Made by a program: the position numbers and the translations under genes. A DNA stretch of 64,000 nt from an uncultured Verrucomicrobiae bacterium (GTDB lineage: Bacteria; Verrucomicrobiota; Verrucomicrobiia; Limisphaerales; UBA11358): NCBI GenBank assembly GCA_963845665.1, contig CAWJTA010000002.1, positions 2,733,581-2,797,580 on the forward strand, given 5' to 3'. Numbering within the stretch: position 1 is the stretch's first letter; each line of letters begins with the position of its first letter. The notes beneath the pieces are model-generated. The model saw only the letters and a program-made list of their open reading frames with translations. It ran no database searches and was not told the origin of the DNA. Below are positions 3,241 through 16,182 of this stretch, piece after piece.

Positions 3241-4742
3241 TTTCCCCAAACCCAATCGCCATTCAAATAGTCAACGGCCCCATTTTTCTTATAGGCTGTC
3301 TTTCCGCCGTCATCGGTCTCGTTCCAGCCGACGGAATAGAGGAGGAATTTTCCCTCTGGCGTGAGCCGATAATGTAACGGTTGGCCATCGATGATATCAT
3401 GCGGGAGGGATTCGATGAATTGTGGCGCGAGTGCGTTGAGCGTTTCGGGATATTGACCGTGAGCGATGCGGTAACGCTCCAATGCGCAAGCCACCCCAGC
3501 CAGACCAACGTCGGTTTGAGCTATGGCAAATCGCCTTGCGCTTGGAATAAGAGCCTGAGTCGCCATTACTGCCTCATACTGGTATGGCGAGGAGTGTTTT
3601 AGTTGCGCCTGAATTTCATCTTGCGTCCGCTTCGAGTATTGCGGTGAAACGATCTGGCGATTTGTGTCAACCAATGTAACGGCATATTGCTGCGACATTT
3701 GTGCCTGGGCCAATTCACTTTGGTAAAAGTAGGCGCTGGGCATGAGATAAAAATGTTGAGTCACGACTTCAGATGTATCTGGATCCAGAACCTTGAATTC
3801 GCGTGTGACTCGCTGGTTGTCGATTGTTTCAATTGCAGATGCGGCTTCCCCACGCATCGCGAATTCATAGTCCTGCAGGAAATCCATTTTTGCTAATGCA
3901 TCCTTGAGCGTAGCCAGTTGGTTATCCGTCCACCGATGCTTTGCCAGGCCTTCCCATATTGGCTGCATGGCAATATTAAAAACTGCTATGCGTACCAGAT
4001 GCGCAATCAAAAACGGCTGGTTGCGAATGGAGTCATTAAGCCGGAACATAAGTTTAATGTCCTCTAGTGCCTTGTCGCTTTCACCGTTTTGTAATTCCGC
4101 GATTGAGCGTAACCCCAGCGCTTGACCCGAACGCTTCAACAACGAAAGCCACGGCAATAATTCACCGCTCGTCACGTCGATTCCGAGATCGTAATCGAGC
4201 GCAAGCCGCGAATCAGGGCGCAGGCTGGCTTTGTGCAGATCTTCGATGGTCGAGTCGTATTTGCTCAAAGCCAGCAGCACGTCTGCGGCCGGCGTTTGCG
4301 ATTGGGGAGACACAGGAAATTCATTCGTCATTGCGGCCAGCGTGCGGTAGTACCGTTGCCAGCTTGCAAGGTCGGTCGTTGTTCCGTTTACCCAGTTACC
4401 GATATTTGGCGACGCTATGGAATCGTCATTGCCGTAGATACTCAAAGAAATACGGCCGGCAATATTCGTATTTGGCCATTCGGAATCGACCAGGCTCTTG
4501 AAAATTGGTGCTTTAAGGAAGTTCCGGTTATCGGACACCGCTGGCGGAGCAAAGGACTGCCAATCAAATGTTTCGCCTTTGGCTGCCATTTCGCGCTTGT
4601 AGTTGTCCCAGGCGCGTTTGCCGCGCCAGTCTTCTTCGGTATAAAAAGCGGCAATCAACGTGGCCAGAACAGCCAGAACGATTAAGAACCAGCGCAGGAT
4701 GCGCCAGCCCCATTTCGATTTAGGTTTGGGCGATTCGTCCAT
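3237..4742 (-). CDS. Membrane-anchored hypothetical protein (501 aa), last gene of the ECF sigma module
   Basis: Long clean ORF with one N-terminal TM helix ('WRILRWFLIVLAVLATLIAAFY'). Its start lies 3 nt after the stop of the upstream small gene. No family recognised. Confidence 0.7.
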   Translation of the reverse strand: MDESPKPKSKWGWRILRWFLIVLAVLATLIAAFYTEEDWRGKRAWDNYKREMAAKGETFDWQSFAPPAVSDNRNFLKAPIFKSLVDSEWPNTNIAGRISLSIYGNDDSIASPNIGNWVNGTTTDLASWQRYYRTLAAMTNEFPVSPQSQTPAADVLLALSKYDSTIEDLHKASLRPDSRLALDYDLGIDVTSGELLPWLSLLKRSGQALGLRSIAELQNGESDKALEDIKLMFRLNDSIRNQPFLIAHLVRIAVFNIAMQPIWEGLAKHRWTDNQLATLKDALAKMDFLQDYEFAMRGEAASAIETIDNQRVTREFKVLDPDTSEVVTQHFYLMPSAYFYQSELAQAQMSQQYAVTLVDTNRQIVSPQYSKRTQDEIQAQLKHSSPYQYEAVMATQALIPSARRFAIAQTDVGLAGVACALERYRIAHGQYPETLNALAPQFIESLPHDIIDGQPLHYRLTPEGKFLLYSVGWNETDDGGKTAYKKNGAVDYLNGDWVWGN

Positions 4743-4745
4743 AAT

Positions 4746-5177
4746 TCAAGTCATCAGAAGTTCCACGCGCCGTTCGCTCGCCGGACGCGGCAAATACGAT
4801 TTCTTCGCTTCAGCAACCGGCGGATCATCCGGCCCCATGAGTTCGCTCAATAGTTGTTGCTGTTGGCGAAACGTCATCATCATTTCAGGAGCATGTTTTG
4901 CCACTGTGATCGGCGACTGGTCGCTTATGGAAAAATTGACCACTAAAATCAGAATCCATACCGCCGCCAATCCCGCCCAAATCACCCGCGACGGCAAGAC
5001 CAGTTCGCGCCAGAAAACGTTTGGAATACCGCACAATGTTGAAATCAATCTGGCCGAAACACTTTGCGCTTTTGTGGCTTTGTTGTTCAATTTTGCGACG
5101 AAATCCCGTCGAATTTCATCCAGCTTCGGTTCGATTGCCTTGTGGCGTGCCAATAGAATTTTACGGGGCGTTTTCAT
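4746..5177 (-). CDS. Small single-pass membrane protein, putative anti-sigma factor by position
   Basis: Start taken at ATG 5177 ('MKTPRKILLARHKAIEPKLDEIRRDF...'), which overlaps the sigma-factor stop by 17 nt. Central TM 'VIWAGLAAVWILILVVNF'. The function is inferred from context only. Confidence 0.5.
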   Translation of the reverse strand: MKTPRKILLARHKAIEPKLDEIRRDFVAKLNNKATKAQSVSARLISTLCGIPNVFWRELVLPSRVIWAGLAAVWILILVVNFSISDQSPITVAKHAPEMMMTFRQQQQLLSELMGPDDPPVAEAKKSYLPRPASERRVELLMT

Positions 5178-5763
5178 TTTTTGCCTCCAATAAAGCCCGC
5201 AATGATTTTTTGGCGTAGTGCAACCGGGACTTGATGGTGCCAATTTGCGCCCCGGTAACGCGGGCGATTTCTTCGAGCGAAAAATCTTCGATAAAATGCA
5301 GCAATAGAACTGACCGATGGGGCAGGGGAAGTCGATTGAGCGCGTTCATAAATTCGGCCTCCGCTTCGCGGCGAATGAGCAGTTCGTCGGGACTATCAAG
5401 CGATTCATCCGGCGCCTCCGGAATTTCATCGAACAAAATTTCCTTGCCGCCCTTTTTCCGCCAATACTGGAGAATCCTCTGATGGGCGATGCCGAAGAGC
5501 CAGCTTCCAAGTTTGTCATCGTCGCGCAGGCTGCCGATATGCCTGGCGGCGGCGATAAACGTCTCCTGGACGAGATCCAGGCTTGTTTGCTCGTGATGGA
5601 CCAGTTCGAAAACATAAACATAAAGTGGCAATTGGTATCTGCGAAAAAGCGCGTCCCAGGCCGCCGGATTTCCTTCTCGGGCCTGTCGTACGGGCAATTG
5701 TTCGCTTTCAGGCATTGCCGGCATTCTCGAGAAGTGGAATGCGCGAATCGAGAAAAGGTTCAT
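5161..5763 (-). CDS. ECF-type RNA polymerase sigma-70 family factor
   Basis: Region 2 ('YQLPLYVYVFELVHHEQTSLDLVQETFIAAARHI') and region 4 ('LPLPHRSVLLLHFIEDFSLEEIARVTGAQIGTIKSRLHYAKKSL') are recognisable. The true start may be an internal Met (5724 or 5715). Confidence 0.9.
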   Translation of the reverse strand: MNLFSIRAFHFSRMPAMPESEQLPVRQAREGNPAAWDALFRRYQLPLYVYVFELVHHEQTSLDLVQETFIAAARHIGSLRDDDKLGSWLFGIAHQRILQYWRKKGGKEILFDEIPEAPDESLDSPDELLIRREAEAEFMNALNRLPLPHRSVLLLHFIEDFSLEEIARVTGAQIGTIKSRLHYAKKSLRALLEAKNENAP

Positions 5764-11100: not shown

Positions 11101-11751
11101 ATCGCCTTTTTTGATATAATGAACGTCGTTGGTGGCGACCAGTTTGAGGCCGAATTCTTTTGACCATTCAATCAAGTGCCGGTTGACCTTCGCCTGCTCC
11201 GGCAGCCCGTGGTTCTGCAGCTCGAGATAAAAATTTCCGGCGCCCAGCGTTTGCCGGAACCAGTCAACCGTTTCCCGCGCCTTGTCCAATTGGTCTTTGA
11301 GGATCAGGTCAGGAATTTCGCTGGCCAGGCAACCGGACATGGCAATGAGACCGTCTTTGTGGGCTGTGAGGATTTCTTTGTCAATGCGGGGCTTGTAATA
11401 GTAGCCCTTGAGGTGGGCGTCCGTCACCAGTTTGATGAGGTTTTTGTAGCCGGTTTCGTCTTTGGCCAACAGCCCGAGATGATGATAAACGTCCCGGCCG
11501 CTGCCGGCCTTTTTTTCCAGGCGTGAGCCGGGGGCCACATAGACTTCGCAACCGATGATGGGTTTGATCCCCTTTTCCCGGGCCGTTTTGTAAAAATCAA
11601 TGGCGCCGTAGAGCGCGCCGTGGTCGGTGATGGCCATCGCGGCAAATCCGAGTTCAACTCCCTTTTCCATGAGCCTGTCGAGACGGCAGGCCCCATCGAG
11701 CAACGAATACTCGGTGTGCAAATGAAGATGAACAAAATCCGCGTGCGGCAT
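8104..11751 (-). CDS. dnaE: DNA polymerase III alpha subunit
   Basis: 1215 aa. PHP domain 'FVHLHLHTEYSLLDGA', polymerase core 'GRDAVAQIITFGT', 'LGLLKMDFLGLKTL', 'GFNKSHAAAYA', and a C-terminal OB fold. Confidence 0.97.
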   Translation of the reverse strand: MPHADFVHLHLHTEYSLLDGACRLDRLMEKGVELGFAAMAITDHGALYGAIDFYKTAREKGIKPIIGCEVYVAPGSRLEKKAGSGRDVYHHLGLLAKDETGYKNLIKLVTDAHLKGYYYKPRIDKEILTAHKDGLIAMSGCLASEIPDLILKDQLDKARETVDWFRQTLGAGNFYLELQNHGLPEQAKVNRHLIEWSKEFGLKLVATNDVHYIKKGDSHAHDCLVCIGTQDLLSNPKRMSAGYPAEQFYLRSAEEMKARFAETPEAVTNTLEVAGQCNLELQVDGKNLHFPVFHPPEHFTREGYLRKLLAEGLQKRYGIHARAEGAQFIVEKVENAQLLPSFKDSEEAAVKVVLDRLDLELKVIEKTGFLSYFLIVGDFVRYGREHGISCVARGSAAGSLVTYLLEIANVDPIRYGLLFERFLNPERVNPPDIDIDFADDRRADVIAYVREKYGRDAVAQIITFGTLGAKSVVRDVARVMGLGYSDGDRLAKMIPADLKMTLEKALKQSPELKTAYDSEDVTRELIDTALVLEDLTRNSSVHAAGVVIGDQPLVNLLPLKQDEDGSLVTQYAMNPVGDLGMLKMDFLGLKTLTVIRNACEMARRTQGIEIDIDHLPLDDKKTYDLLNRAETLGVFQLESGGMRDLCRKFQISSIEHITALVALYRPGPMDLIPDFIKRRHGDVKIEYEHPLLEPIASETYGILIYQEQVMQAAQILAGFTLGAADILRRAMGKKKVEEMQKQREKFVKGCAEKNKISATKANQIFDLLEKFAGYGFNKSHAAAYAIVAYQTAYLKANFPVEFFCAMMTNDMADTEKLSKYIDEAHEFGVEVLQPDVNESGVYFEPSNAGTGSESAKSESHPQRPIRFGLAAVKNVGEATVQSVLKERDQNGKFKSLANLCERVESRALNRKVLEALIKCGACDCFGQTRATMFSQIDRALGRAAGIQSDKQKGQSSLFGAFEDKPAAGGMSETEKNLPEWPQHELLAYEKELLGFYVTGHPLTPYVPLLKKYALVNTAQLAGLPNRGMTRIGGLIATVQNGVSKKSGKPYSMVTLEDLEGTVQILCMNENFEKFKALLQLNKAILVTGEVNVGDERPKIFPQEIIALEEAPKKFTKQVHLRLQTAHLEPAQLETVRDLVVGHPGKCPLFLCFMQPAGEVFFLQANDRFSVMPSLELQHEADTRFGEGTYYAKVDTTLPERQSRWPRKTESNGGDE

Positions 11752-11970
11752 GACACCAATTTAGCTTTTCACAGCGGCAAGACCAAGAGGCAAAGTTGAA
11801 TACAGCAGACTATCGATGGCAGGGACGCTGCGCTGCGGCGCAACGGGCTTGGCCGGACCTGTCGCTTGATCAACCCGCTTTACGGGCGGTGACGGCGCAG
11901 GGCGCCGTCCCTGCCAACAATCCCTCAGTTTCGCTTTGCCTTTCGGGCGTTTGTCGAGCACTTTAAGTCG

Positions 11971-12669
11971 ATGAAAAGATGGTCGTTTGTTTGGTTTGGA
12001 GTATCGTTTGTTGGGATATTGTTGTCCCCGCAGTTTGCGGGCGCGGCGTTGGCCAGGTACGTTGTACTTGAGGGAAACGTGGGTTATTTGCGCGTTGCCA
12101 AAACGGACAAGGACCTTGCGAGCGGCATAGCGGCCGCGCTGAACCATTTGGCAGCGACGAATGCAATCGCCGGAATCGTCGTTGATTTGCGCTTCGCCGG
12201 TGGAAATGACATGGGCGATCTTCGCGGGATCGAACAGCAGTTGGAGCAACCCAAATTGCCGCTGGCGATCTTAATCAACGGCCAAACCGACGGCGCATCC
12301 GCAAAGGTTGCTGAAGATTTGCGGGAAGAAAATACCGGCCTGGTTTTTGGTTCAGCCGCGGAGAATTTTCAACCGGACATTCCCGTACCGATAAACTCCG
12401 ACGACGAGAAGAAGCTTGTCAACGACCCTTACGCGGAGTTGCCGGAGAGCTACACTGTGGATGCCAGCACAAATTTGCTGCCGCTGGTTGAGATCGACCA
12501 CACCACTGAAGCGGATCTGGTCCGCGAAAAAATCAAGGACGGCGACCAGGACGATAGTGATCATCCTGCCGTACCGCAAAAGCCGTTCATCCATGATCCG
12601 GTTCTGGCACGGGGCGTGGATTTTATCAAAGGAGTGGCCGCGTTGCATCTGAGCGCCGCCCAGCCCTGA
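11971..12669 (+). CDS. Secreted protein with an S41 (tail-specific protease)-like domain; catalytic dyad not recognisable
   Basis: Signal peptide 'MKRWSFVWFGVSFVGILLSPQFAGA'. 'GYLRV...GIVVDLRFAGGND...LAILINGQTDGASAKVAE' resembles the S41 core, but I could not find the SASA-E / GKG Ser-Lys motifs. Confidence 0.35.
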   Translation: MKRWSFVWFGVSFVGILLSPQFAGAALARYVVLEGNVGYLRVAKTDKDLASGIAAALNHLAATNAIAGIVVDLRFAGGNDMGDLRGIEQQLEQPKLPLAILINGQTDGASAKVAEDLREENTGLVFGSAAENFQPDIPVPINSDDEKKLVNDPYAELPESYTVDASTNLLPLVEIDHTTEADLVREKIKDGDQDDSDHPAVPQKPFIHDPVLARGVDFIKGVAALHLSAAQP

Positions 12670-12779
12670 GGGGAACCAAAGTTTGAAATATCAAAAGAAA
12701 CGGGCGCATCGCATAAATTTTCTTTGCATTCGGAATTGACGAGTCGGCCCCTACAATTCACTTTAAATCTTCGCTCTGG

Positions 12780-14948
12780 ATGAAGACGATTTTGTTTATA
12801 TGCACCGGCAACGTTTGCCGCAGTCCCATGGCCGAAGGGCTTTTTCGCAAGGCTGCGGGCAACGGCGAGTTCCGTGTGCTCTCGGCCGGGCTTGGGGCCG
12901 TTGACGGACAGCCTCCGACACCGCATTCCGTCTCGGCCATGCGTGAACTGGGGATTGATATTTCGAGCCAGCGCAGCCACACGCTGACAGGCGAGTTGGT
13001 GCGGCAGGCTGATTACATTTTTGGAATGACCCACTCCCACGTGGACACCGTGGGCCTTCTTTACCCTGCGGCAGCGGACAAAACGTTCCTGCTGCGCGAA
13101 TTTAATGAATTGGTCCCTTCTTATGAAAAGGACATCCCTGACCCGATTGGATGCCCGTATGATATTTACGTCGTCTGCCGCGATCAAATTTACCAAAGCA
13201 TCAATTCTCTTTTGAAATTTATGGAACAACATGAAACTCTCCAGACGTCCACCTCCGAAACGCCTTCATTTGTCAACTTTGCCGTCGGCGCCGACCACGG
13301 CGGCTTCGACCTCAAAGAAACGCTAAAGAAAGAACTCTTGAGTCGGGGATTGACCGTCAGGGATTTCGGCGCGGTCAGCAAAGATCCGGCCGACGATTAT
13401 CCGGATTTTGCCATCCCGGCCTCCGAATCCGTAGCCGAAGGGCGCGCCGAGTTTGCTCTGCTGATCTGTACCTCGGGGGTTGGTATCAGCATCGCCGCTA
13501 ATAAAATTCCCGGCGTTCGCGCCGCCCAGGCGTTCAATGAAAAGGAAGCAGACTTGATACGGCGGCACAACGACGTAAATGCCCTTTGCCTGAACGGTGA
13601 CATGGAACCGGAACTGGCGAAACGCGTTCTTAATGCATTTATCGCCGGCAAGTTTGAAGGCGGACGGCACGAACGCCGGGTCGATAAGCTCGACTTCCGG
13701 CTGGCGCCAGTGCAATTGCGTTTGCGGAACGTGGACCCGGCAGTGGGCGCGGCGATCGAACGGGAAAAAAACCGGCAGCGCGAAAACATTGAGCTCATTG
13801 CCAGCGAAAACTTTGTCAGTCCCGCCGTTTTGGAGGCGCAAGGCTCGGTTCTAACCAACAAGTACGCTGAAGGCATTCCCGGCAAGAGGTGGTACGGGGG
13901 TTGCGAAAATGTGGACATCATCGAACAACTCGCCATTGATCGGGCCAGGAAGCTCTTCGGCGCCGACCACGCGAACGTACAGCCGCATTCCGGAAGCCAG
14001 GCGAACATGGCGGTTTATTTCGCCGTGCTCAAACCCGGCGACAAAATGCTGACGATGGATTTGACCCACGGCGGCCATTTGACCCATGGCAACAAAGCTA
14101 ATTTCAGCGGCCGATTTTTTGAAATCATCCATTACGGCGTTCGCAAGGACACCGAGCAGATTGACTATGACCAGTTCGCGGCGCAGGTGCGGGAACACAA
14201 ACCCAAAATGATCACCGTGGGCGCCAGCAATTATTCGCGCACGATCGATTTTAAACGGATGGGCGATATCGCCCGCGAAGCCGGCGCTTTTTTGATGGCC
14301 GACATGGCTCATATTGCAGGGCTCGTCGCCACCGGATTGCATCCGAGCCCGGTACCGCATGCGGATTTTGTGACCACCACTACGCACAAGACATTGCGCG
14401 GTCCGCGCGGCGGACTGATTTTGTGCCGTGAAAAATACGCGAAGGAAGTGGATTCAACAGTATTTCCCGGCATCCAGGGCGGTCCGCTGGAACACGTCGT
14501 CGCCGCCAAGGCTGTCTGCTTCCATGAAGCCTTGCAGCCCTCGTTTAAGGCGTATCAGGAGCAAATTATCAAAAACGCGAAGGCTCTTGCGGAAGGAATT
14601 AAGCGCAATGGTTACCGTCTTGTCAGTGGCGGTACTGACAATCACCTGATGTCGGTGGATGTGGGTGCCAAGGGCCTGGGCGGCAAGGATTGCCAGCTGG
14701 CGCTGGATGAGGCCGGGATTACCGTCAACAAAAATACGATTCCGTTTGAGACGCGTTCGGTATTTCAAGGCAGCGGCCTTCGCCTGGGCACACCGGCAGT
14801 GACGACACGCGGCATGAAAGAACCTGAAATGGCGGCCATCGCTGATATGGTATCGGAAGTACTGATGGACATTAAAAATACGGAAGTCATTGGAAAAGTC
14901 CGGCAGCGCGTTCGCGAATTGACCGCGAAATTTCCGTTACCTTATTAA
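12780..14948 (+). CDS. glyA: Single 722-aa ORF fusing LMW protein-tyrosine/arginine phosphatase + ribose-5-phosphate isomerase B + serine hydroxymethyltransferase
   Basis: Residues 1-150 (nt 12780-13229): '[14 protein letters not shown]' C-X5-R P-loop and 'IPDPIG'. Residues ~165-304 (nt 13272-13691): RpiB '[12 protein letters not shown]', '[15 protein letters not shown]', '[11 protein letters not shown]'. Residues ~313-722 (nt 13716-14945): SHMT '[29 protein letters not shown]' and PLP lysine '[14 protein letters not shown]'. There is no stop codon between the modules. Confidence 0.85.
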
Positions 14949-15377
14949 ATGCAACGGCAAAAGAGACGGCGAAATTCAATCCTGTGGGTTGAAGCGGGGG
15001 GATTTTCGCTGATCATTGTCATGTCGTGGCTGACAGAGCTGTTCCGGATTCCACACTATCTCTTTGGCGAATCCTTCGTCCCAAACTGGCATCGAGCAAT
15101 TCTCCGGACGCTGGTCATCGGCGCGATTTGGATATGGGTTTATTGGATTACGCGGCGCCTGCTTAGGCGCCTGCATTACCTGGAGGAATTTCTGCGGATT
15201 TGCAGTTGGTGCCGCAAGGTTTGCCACGACGACGAATGGCTAGGGCTGGAAGCATTCTTCAATTCAAAATTCGCGACGCGAACGTCGCACGGGATGTGCC
15301 CGGAATGCCTGAAGAAGAAGGTCCTCGAACTGTCGCCGGATGAAAAGCCGTCAAAGCCGCAAAACCGGCTCAACTGA
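14949..15377 (+). CDS. Small membrane protein with a C-terminal Cys-rich (CxxC...CxxC) tail
   Basis: The ATG directly abuts the TAA of the fusion ORF (TAAATG). Two TM helices, then 'ICSWCRKVCHDDEWLGLEAFFNSKFATRTSHGMCPECLKK'. Confidence 0.6.
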   Translation: MQRQKRRRNSILWVEAGGFSLIIVMSWLTELFRIPHYLFGESFVPNWHRAILRTLVIGAIWIWVYWITRRLLRRLHYLEEFLRICSWCRKVCHDDEWLGLEAFFNSKFATRTSHGMCPECLKKKVLELSPDEKPSKPQNRLN

Positions 15378-15392
15378 GCAGAGGGGATGAGG

Positions 15393-15515
15393 GGATGATT
15401 GGATGATTGGATTAACGGATTTTTGGCATGACGAGTCGTCACATGGATTTTTGGATCGCGGGAATTGTCCGGTGCGGATTACCCATTATCCATCCATCCA
15501 ATAATCCATTTATCC
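15393..15515. repeat. Imperfect 20-nt inverted repeat (GGAT-rich arm / ATCC-rich arm) flanking an 83-nt spacer, between convergent genes
   Basis: 'ggatgattggatgattggat' (15393-15412) pairs with 'atccaataatccatttatcc' (15496-15515) at 17 Watson-Crick pairs plus 1 G-T out of 20. The spacer holds 'ggatttttgg' twice, flanking the palindrome 'tgacga-g-tcgtca'. Confidence 0.6.
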
Positions 15516-15522
15516 AGGGCCT

Positions 15523-15783
15523 TTAGGCGGCGGCTGGCTTCCAATTCCGCTTCGGGGCCTTTGTAACCAGGCCTTTTTTGAGGGCGGTGGCGGCCACGCG
15601 GATGTAACGGACTTCGCCGCTGGGCAAAAGGGCTTTGACACGCTGAAGGTTGGGCATGAATTTCCGCTTGGTGATCGCGGTCACGTGCGTGCCGATACCG
15701 CCGGACTTTTTGGACTTACCAGAGCGCCAGATAATGCTGCCCTTCATTGGGCGTTTGCCAGTCAATTCACAAATGCGTGCCAT
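15523..15783 (-). CDS. rpmB: 50S ribosomal protein L28
   Basis: 'MARICELTGKRPMKGSIIWRSGKSKKSGGIGTHVTAITKRKFMPNLQ' is the canonical L28 N-terminus. Confidence 0.95.
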   Translation of the reverse strand: MARICELTGKRPMKGSIIWRSGKSKKSGGIGTHVTAITKRKFMPNLQRVKALLPSGEVRYIRVAATALKKGLVTKAPKRNWKPAAA

Positions 15784-15888
15784 AAATCAAATTTCAGTTA
15801 AAGAGGTGAAAGAATAGCCATTTTCCGCGCAAAGGCAAGTGCTTTCACGAAGATTTTTAGGCATGAATGACGCTAATCAGCAGCAATT

Positions 15889-16182
15889 TCAGGCCTCGTA
15901 ATCGAAGACTAGAATTTCGGCGCGAATTGGATTGATAAAAGTCTTCACAACGTGCTGATGCTCTGGATGCTGAATATATGCGTTCAGGGCTGCCCGATCT
16001 TTGAAGCGGAAGACCATTCCGTACGTAAAGCCTTTCGCGCGTTCAGAGAAATTCGTGCCCAAAGATAAATCCATGATTTCCGGGATTTTTTCCTTCAAGC
16101 CACGTAGTTCCATTATCGCGCGGTCAATCGCTTCCGGATCGGCCTTCTCGCTCCAGCGTAATAAAAGAATGTGTTCAACCAT
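15889..16182 (-). CDS. Dabb (stress-responsive alpha/beta barrel) domain protein
   Basis: 97 aa. 'VEHILLLRW...', 'GFTYGMVFRFKDRAALNAYIQHPEHQ' is the typical Dabb pattern. Confidence 0.85.
   Translation of the reverse strand: MVEHILLLRWSEKADPEAIDRAIMELRGLKEKIPEIMDLSLGTNFSERAKGFTYGMVFRFKDRAALNAYIQHPEHQHVVKTFINPIRAEILVFDYEA

Follow-up and report, generated by a model that had tools for sequence, protein, structure and literature searches.

A single reading frame joining an LMW phosphatase, RpiB and serine hydroxymethyltransferase in Verrucomicrobia

Does a reading frame that runs through three enzymes encode one protein, or do three neighboring genes only look joined? This question is raised by a stretch of 64,000 nucleotides (the window) from an uncultured Verrucomicrobiae bacterium of the Limisphaerales (assembly GCA_963845665.1, contig CAWJTA010000002.1, positions 2,733,581 to 2,797,580). 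In it, positions 12780-14948 (+) form a single open reading frame (ORF) that starts with the ATG at 12780, ends with the TAA at 14946-14948 and encodes 722 amino acids (aa) with no internal stop. The original prediction, made from the letters of the window, had read this ORF as a low-molecular-weight (LMW) phosphatase, the ribose 5-phosphate isomerase RpiB and a serine hydroxymethyltransferase (SHMT) translated without interruption, and both the translation and three full-length Pfam domains bear this out. As judged from sequence comparison, the gene very probably encodes a genuine, vertically inherited fusion, a polypeptide of ~79 kDa with three catalytically competent enzymes in ancestral operon order. 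Its parts, with aa numbers counted along the fusion, are the following.

12780..14948 (+): fusion gene LMW phosphatase-RpiB-SHMT (ORF translation; same architecture in >120 clusters)
12780..13229 (+): LMW phosphatase domain, YwlE subgroup, aa 1-150 (Pfam LMWPc and structure matches)
12801..12824 (+): P-loop of the phosphatase, C8-T-G-N-V-C-R14-S15; Val12 corresponds to YwlE Thr11 (sequence)
13140..13145 (+): general-acid motif D121-P122 of the phosphatase (invariant in 121 sequences)
13230..13277 (+): linker 1, aa 151-166, flexible (variable sequence, in-frame indels, low predicted confidence, pLDDT)
13278..13694 (+): RpiB domain, aa 167-305 (Pfam LacAB_rpiB, PRK05571)
13467..13469 (+): RpiB catalytic Cys230 in the ICTSGVG loop (invariant in alignments and in 121 homologues)
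13695..13733 (+): junction 2, aa 306-318: hinge of 4 residues, then a conserved helix that runs into SHMT (alignment, AlphaFold2)
13734..14945 (+): SHMT domain, aa 319-722 (Pfam SHMT, NF000586)
14388..14390 (+): Lys537 of SHMT, T-H-K motif, binding pyridoxal 5'-phosphate (PLP) (sequence; invariant in 121 close homologues)

All three domains give full-length Pfam matches. LMWPc (PF01451) matches aa 4-145 (profile 1-144 of 144; 101.6 bits, cut-off 23.2), LacAB_rpiB (PF02502) matches aa 168-304 (profile 2-138 of 138; 154.5 bits, cut-off 24.7) and SHMT (PF00464) matches aa 316-691 (profile 2-399 of 399; 546 bits). With the NCBIfam models, the SHMT domain reached 638.9 bits on NF000586 (cut-off 335; profile 2-403 of 404), a score typical of a housekeeping GlyA, and the RpiB domain reached 149.7 bits on PRK05571 (cut-off 135) and 141 on TIGR00689 (cut-off 88.3). 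Each domain also retains the residues that define its own chemistry. The motifs named in the original prediction (C-X5-R, DP, CTSGVG and the PLP-lysine) are all intact, as C8-X5-R14-S15, D121-P122, C230-T-S-G-V-G and T-H-K537, and its two linkers were recovered exactly, at aa 151-166 (13230-13277) and aa 305-317 (13692-13730). In the close homologues, C8, R14, S15, D121 and P122 of the phosphatase, C230, H263, N264, R296, H297 and R300 of RpiB, and H536 and K537 of SHMT are invariant; the SHMT loop HGGHLTHG is present at aa 430-437. The RpiB residues were placed by a correspondence with E. coli RpiB (Cys66, Thr68, the His-Asn pair and the Arg of GGRHxxR) that we take to hold for this domain. 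The GC content is even over the three parts, and the window holds no paralogue of the gene.

The same architecture recurs in independent assemblies, far beyond what chance would give. In a search covering 5.8 billion proteins, all 120 of the best matches listed carried PF01451+PF02502+PF00464 in one protein (704-735 aa, 78-93% identity); they originate from assemblies made independently (JGI, ENA, NCBI and Logan), the longest contig measuring 925 kb. Counted by domain architecture, more than 120 distinct protein clusters share the combination. The matches with names belong to the Verrucomicrobiae or Limisphaerales and are labelled 'serine hydroxymethyltransferase' or 'RpiB/LacA/LacB family sugar-phosphate isomerase'. 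The original view of a collapse into one polypeptide stands. The fusion is not confined to the window: it is widespread in public data, where it usually bears the name of one domain. About one fifth of the matches are ~707 aa long and seem to lack the phosphatase P-loop. We consider these forms to be start-codon mis-calls, because the DNA of one such case (L001) has an in-frame upstream ATG that restores the N-terminus. An exact look-up of the 722-aa protein found it in no public assembly. In addition, HMMER, run exhaustively over 1.84 billion cluster representatives, revealed further three-domain proteins at 58%, 44% and 36% identity (P0121, P0123 and P0180), as well as two-domain RpiB-SHMT proteins of 555-577 aa (P0122, P0124, P0126, P0131 and P0224) whose sources are labelled Victivallales and Kiritimatiellia. 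The start mis-call seen in the ~707-aa forms also distinguishes P0271 from P0180. Separately, the contigs carrying three close verrucomicrobial orthologues (L002, P0014 and P0042) are labelled 'uncultured Bifidobacteriaceae', 'Candidatus Acidoferrum sp.' and 'Methylomirabilota bacterium', which are probably binning or taxonomy errors in the records of metagenome-assembled genomes (MAGs).

To place the fusion among its relatives, one genome per GTDB species was scanned with a junction-spanning tblastn query, the reading frame then being tested at each locus; the sampling is incomplete. At least 10 species-level genomes (L002-L009, L014 and L015) carry the three domains in one frame. Among the matches listed, the triple fusion occurs in Pedosphaera-like taxa, in Chthoniobacterales/'Spartobacteria' and in some Verrucomicrobiales, and the one-frame RpiB-SHMT form occurs in Akkermansiaceae (including an Akkermansia sp.), other Verrucomicrobiota and Lentisphaerae; the two-domain form is also present in Kiritimatiellia. 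In some Lentisphaerae and Verrucomicrobiota (L018, L028, L043 and L056), a separate phosphatase gene lies directly upstream of an RpiB-SHMT fusion. Three separate, adjacent genes in the same order are found in Opitutales (L024, L062) and Syntrophomonadaceae (L059), while adjacent rpiB and glyA genes occur, among the matches listed, in Acidobacteria, Alphaproteobacteria, Selenomonas, Nitrospiria and others. The components are therefore separate, adjacent and in the same order elsewhere, and the junctions of the fusion are kept coding (see below), as expected of a fusion of operon neighbors (a 'Rosetta-stone' protein). With the separate, two-domain and three-domain arrangements all found, the proposal that a conserved ywlE/rpiB/glyA-type neighborhood has collapsed into one polypeptide is supported.

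The boundaries between phosphatase and RpiB in L018 and L043 are ordinary gene boundaries that lie in frame: a TAA, a spacer and an ATG, preceded in L043 by AAGGGA. Consequently, the loss of one stop codon there would yield the triple fusion. We had considered read-through or a sequencing error at these single in-frame stops, and rejected both in view of the ordinary boundaries. In a rough neighbor-joining tree of RpiB+SHMT, the verrucomicrobial fusions form one clade. Outside the Planctomycetes-Verrucomicrobia-Chlamydiae (PVC) group, an Acidimicrobiales MAG of 69% GC (L034:3092-5689) also has RpiB and SHMT in one stop-free frame; this fusion is apparently of independent origin, because it groups in the tree with an unfused actinobacterial (Acidimicrobiales) relative. 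L034 was not accepted as a triple fusion from a further phylum. Its phosphatase is joined only via an open frame of ~190 aa rich in P, A and E that is unlikely to be a true linker, and RpiB has a typical GTG start before it; L034 was counted as an RpiB-SHMT fusion only. Our model suggests that neighboring genes lost their stop codons and that short in-frame spacers were turned into linkers, RpiB and SHMT probably having fused first, in an ancestor within the PVC group, and the phosphatase probably having been added later in some verrucomicrobial lineages. The fusion is an old, vertically inherited family common to many Verrucomicrobia, of which the gene in the window is an ordinary member.

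Two further observations were made on these loci. In many non-PVC genomes, rpiB and glyA share a frame with a single stop between them and an otherwise open spacer (L010, L012, L019-L021, L023, L025, L026, L029, L033, L037, L039, L040, L042, L051, L057-L059 and L061); an enrichment of this arrangement cannot be claimed, as the junction-spanning tblastn ranking favors it. In addition, the RpiB-SHMT frame of one Verrucomicrobia MAG (L047:3905-5693) is broken within SHMT (frames 3905-4936 and 4818-5693), representing either a pseudogene or an assembly error.

Next, we asked how the two junctions have evolved. Among 121 close homologues, linker 1 (aa ~152-166) is variable, with in-frame indels of 3 and 6 nt, whereas the sequence of junction 2 (aa 305-318) shows strong conservation and never departs from R314 and L315. 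Over deeper relatives, junction 2 ranges from ~6 to 16 residues in length, and the frame is open in every case. From a codon alignment of the gene in the window with its four relatives for which DNA was at hand (L001, L082, L083 and L084), the ratio of non-synonymous to synonymous substitution rates (dN/dS) was 0.08 for the phosphatase, 0.10 for RpiB, 0.059 for SHMT, 0.25 for linker 1 and 0.12 for junction 2 (52 synonymous and 22 non-synonymous differences), all of these values being approximate, as dS is saturated (~1.5). To judge from this pattern of change, the fused frame clearly evolves as coding sequence at both junctions.

No ATG, GTG or TTG codon is present between aa 149 and 180, and therefore RpiB has no start of its own there. 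Upstream of this interval, ATG148 is replaced by GTC, CTG or ATT in L002, L003 and L005. The original prediction had also pointed to GTG or TTG starts with a ribosome-binding site (RBS) near 13700. The codons are present, but they are not conserved in orthologues, where GTG311 becomes GTC or CTG, TTG313 becomes TTC, TTG315 becomes CTG and GTG318 becomes GTT. The RBS half of the idea is uninformative here, because the genome uses Shine-Dalgarno sites at the background rate: Shine-Dalgarno-like cores were seen at 5 of 33 likely gene starts in the window, versus 16% at internal ATGs. Translation initiation in this genome thus appears, from the gene starts of the window, to be largely independent of Shine-Dalgarno sites. 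A promoter and terminator scan of 11700-15900 gave no internal matches above the shuffled expectation.

An AlphaFold2 run with a 77-sequence alignment predicted three confident domains whose relative placement is undefined (mean predicted local distance difference test, pLDDT, 88.3; predicted template modelling score 0.61). The phosphatase domain has a pLDDT of ~90, and confidence is low only at aa 154-162 in linker 1 (pLDDT <50) and at aa 306-309. The conserved VQLRLRNV stretch is predicted as a helix (aa 311-318) that runs into the N-terminal helices of SHMT. The domains would accordingly resemble beads on a string, linker 1 being disordered and junction 2 consisting of a short hinge and a conserved helix.

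We also examined to which LMW phosphatases the N-terminal domain belongs. The closest solved structures are 4egs (90.8 bits) and YwlE (83-88 bits; 87.6 for 1zgg/4kk3), followed by Wzb (58) and YfkJ (48.5). By closeness in sequence, the domain falls in the YwlE subgroup and not with the Wzb, YfkJ or PtpA-type enzymes. At P-loop position 5, where YwlE has Thr, it carries Val12; the 98 full-length close homologues have V (88) or I (10) at this residue, and Thr occupies the YwlE Thr11 position in some distant orthologues (L006, L015, L043 and L062). According to PMC7772506 (citing Fuhrmann 2013), Thr11 of YwlE favors phosphoarginine and Ile at the same place favors phosphotyrosine. An assignment as arsenate reductase (ArsC, pI258 type) was rejected, with scores of 60.1 versus 174.3 on TIGR02691 and 61.7 versus 215 on NF010053, and with no Cys within aa 80-95, the region in which ArsC has its second and third redox cysteines (about Cys82 and Cys89). 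For the RpiB domain, the closest solved structures are 3s5p (119.9 bits) and 1o1x (113.6 bits); among the matches, no solved structure of the phosphatase or RpiB domain is long enough to hold a second domain. It is worth noting that 4egs_A is named 'Ribose 5-phosphate isomerase RpiB' in its deposit, yet it aligns over the LMW-phosphatase domain; the name looks like a carry-over from a neighboring or fused gene.

What could such a fusion do? RpiB converts ribose 5-phosphate (R5P) to ribulose 5-phosphate, SHMT converts serine and tetrahydrofolate to glycine and methylene-tetrahydrofolate, and the phosphatase hydrolyzes phosphomonoesters. Since the three reactions share no intermediate, substrate channelling is unlikely. 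Each fused domain would still run its own reaction. The coupling of pentose-phosphate and one-carbon metabolism to a phosphatase that had been proposed for this protein consequently holds in the physical sense and no further. We hypothesize that the main effect of the fusion would be obligatory 1:1:1 co-expression and co-localization of the three enzymes. RpiB and SHMT are both obligate oligomers, and co-assembly via their dimer interfaces would be possible. A looser rationale is that R5P, glycine and one-carbon units jointly feed nucleotide synthesis.

Three other explanations have to be weighed against a genuine trifunctional fusion. That three separate genes look joined through the loss of a stop codon or frameshift in sequencing or assembly is already effectively refuted: apart from the lack of an independent replicate of the exact protein, nothing specific speaks for it, while the identical stop-free architecture is found in 10 species genomes and, across independent projects, in >120 clusters, purifying selection acts on the junction codons, every indel is in frame, and the gene order around the fusion is kept in four close relatives. 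Alternatively, the one ORF could give rise to separate enzymes, by internal initiation (at Met148, or at a GTG or TTG within aa 311-322) or by proteolysis of a linker. Met148 is indeed shared by all 121 close homologues, aa 311-322 offer several GTG and TTG codons, linker 1 is predicted by AlphaFold2 to be disordered and could be accessible to a protease, and a missing RBS carries no weight in a genome that does not rely on Shine-Dalgarno sites. Even so, we regard this explanation as very unlikely. Orthologues have non-start codons in place of the candidate starts, no start codon lies within aa 149-180, the amino acids of junction 2 are conserved amid synonymous turnover, and no internal promoter signal exceeds chance. 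Moreover, an open frame has been kept through indel-rich linkers over deep divergence, which would be unexpected if the joined product were irrelevant.

A third explanation accepts the polypeptide as real but gives at least one domain, the phosphatase or SHMT, a scaffold or regulatory role instead of that of a working enzyme. A precedent is offered by P0180/P0271, a divergent triple fusion from metagenomes (683 and 702 aa; 36% identity) in which the P-loop of the phosphatase and the catalytic residues of RpiB are retained; in its SHMT domain, the PLP-lysine segment is replaced by VGGTGATMRGPGTG and the HGGHLTHG loop is gone, leaving a pseudo-SHMT. This lineage has retained a fused SHMT fold without catalysis, and the Val at the arginine-phosphatase specificity position and an RpiB domain just under an equivalog cut-off point in the same direction. 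For the protein encoded in the window, we nevertheless consider such a role highly improbable: C8, R14, D121, C230, H263, N264, R296, H297, R300, H536 and K537 are invariant in it and its close homologues, the domains are under strong purifying selection (dN/dS 0.06-0.10), and SHMT scores 638.9 bits, like a housekeeping GlyA. The genuine fusion of three competent enzymes thus remains our preferred reading, although several points weigh against it. The dN/dS values are approximate, as stated above. The RpiB domain falls just under the stricter equivalog cut-off of TIGR01120 (128.6 versus 138.65), and it has Ser232 at the position of E. coli RpiB Thr68, where Thr occurs in 14 of the 121 homologues. 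The phosphatase carries Val, and not Thr, at the YwlE specificity position. Without Shine-Dalgarno usage, internal initiation independent of such sites would be conceivable. Finally, as the dead SHMT of P0180/P0271 indicates, not every member of the family need have all of its domains fully active.

A more elaborate role can be imagined for the fusion, and we mention it as an unlikely one. The RpiB and SHMT oligomers might assemble a higher-order particle in which the phosphatase acts on, or is regulated by, the metabolic domains or phosphorylated ligands, so forming a regulated 'nucleotide-precursor supply' module (R5P, glycine and one-carbon units). The dead SHMT of P0180/P0271, the strongly conserved helix of junction 2 and the deep conservation of the ywlE-rpiB-glyA linkage across phyla would fit a structural role for SHMT and a fixed geometry at junction 2, although none of them is proof.

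The surroundings of the gene are in part conserved. An S41-like gene lies upstream of the fusion in all four close relatives with gene tables, and a small ORF and an L28 gene lie downstream in L001 and L082. In the window, the upstream ORF (11971-12669, +; 232 aa) has a signal-peptide-like N-terminus and matches Peptidase_S41 only over the first 43 positions; it has syntenic counterparts before the fusion in L001, L082 and L084. Downstream, an ORF of 142 aa (14949-15377, +) starts at the base right after the TAA of the fusion (TAAATG). Its predicted product contains hydrophobic segments and, at the C-terminus, the pattern C-x2-C ... C-P-x-C (ICSWCRKVCH...HGMCPEC), has no Pfam match and shows 76% identity to the ORF at the same position in L001, where it lies 239 nt downstream. 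A link to the purine pathway through the proximity of purD (GARS), two genes upstream in L083 and L084, was dismissed, as purD is missing around the fusion in the window, whose counterpart ORF encodes a PIN/PhoH protein. Directly before the fusion, the alignment of five orthologous upstream regions revealed one more feature.

12736..12779 (+): 5' leader, conserved; its TTGACGA box, 38 nt from the ATG, does not vary (five orthologous upstream regions aligned)

A consensus sigma-70 scan made no call in this leader, which is probably the fusion gene's own promoter region.

These results have practical consequences. NCBI and JGI records name the fusion proteins after one domain only, and rpiB, glyA or the phosphatase can therefore be overlooked when pathways are reconstructed for Verrucomicrobiota, Lentisphaerota and Kiritimatiellia (Akkermansiaceae among them). 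As a 'Rosetta-stone' protein, the fusion also hints at a real functional association behind the linkage, long unexplained, of rpiB and glyA with a YwlE-like phosphatase, and it provides a natural construct with which to probe that association. The fusion alone does not open up a new mechanism: its domains are ordinary, and it is old, common and in part already remarked on (PMC13608581). That 2026 paper on Limisphaera notes the RpiB+SHMT fusion in one sentence, for Limisphaera and 'Ca. Methylacidiphilum infernorum', without mention of the phosphatase domain and without analysis or biochemistry of RpiB+SHMT. Our literature search found this sentence only, and no biochemical or structural study of the fusion; it turned up no characterized trifunctional protein of this type, as the original prediction had supposed.

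How does the fusion compare with known systems? Its phosphatase shares with the YwlE/PtpB arginine phosphatases (4kk3, 1zgg and 4pic) the LMW protein tyrosine phosphatase fold, a CTGNxCRS P-loop with Thr at position 2 and the DP acid. In contrast, it carries Val (in some homologues Ile) and not Thr11 at position 5 of the P-loop, forms one chain with two metabolic enzymes, and is not known to lie in the context of an McsB-type arginine kinase. A FolB (dihydroneopterin aldolase)-SHMT protein (P0157, 562 aa) likewise places an extra N-terminal enzyme domain on a bacterial SHMT. There, however, the partner is a folate-pathway enzyme with a clear metabolic link, whereas RpiB and the phosphatase share no metabolite with SHMT. 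Another SHMT (P0137, 537 aa) bears an N-terminal extension of ~134 aa with no Pfam match. The ywlE-ywlF(rpiB)-glyA neighborhood of Bacillus subtilis and other Firmicutes, in which we take ywlG to lie between rpiB and glyA in B. subtilis, comprises the same three families in the same order and on the same strand, but as separate genes with their own starts and stops, as seen in L059 and L024. Also close are the two-domain RpiB-SHMT proteins of Verrucomicrobiota, which have the same order and a short linker after GGRHxRRv.K and belong to the same clade in the rough RpiB+SHMT tree; they differ from the fusion described here in that the N-terminal phosphatase domain is absent.

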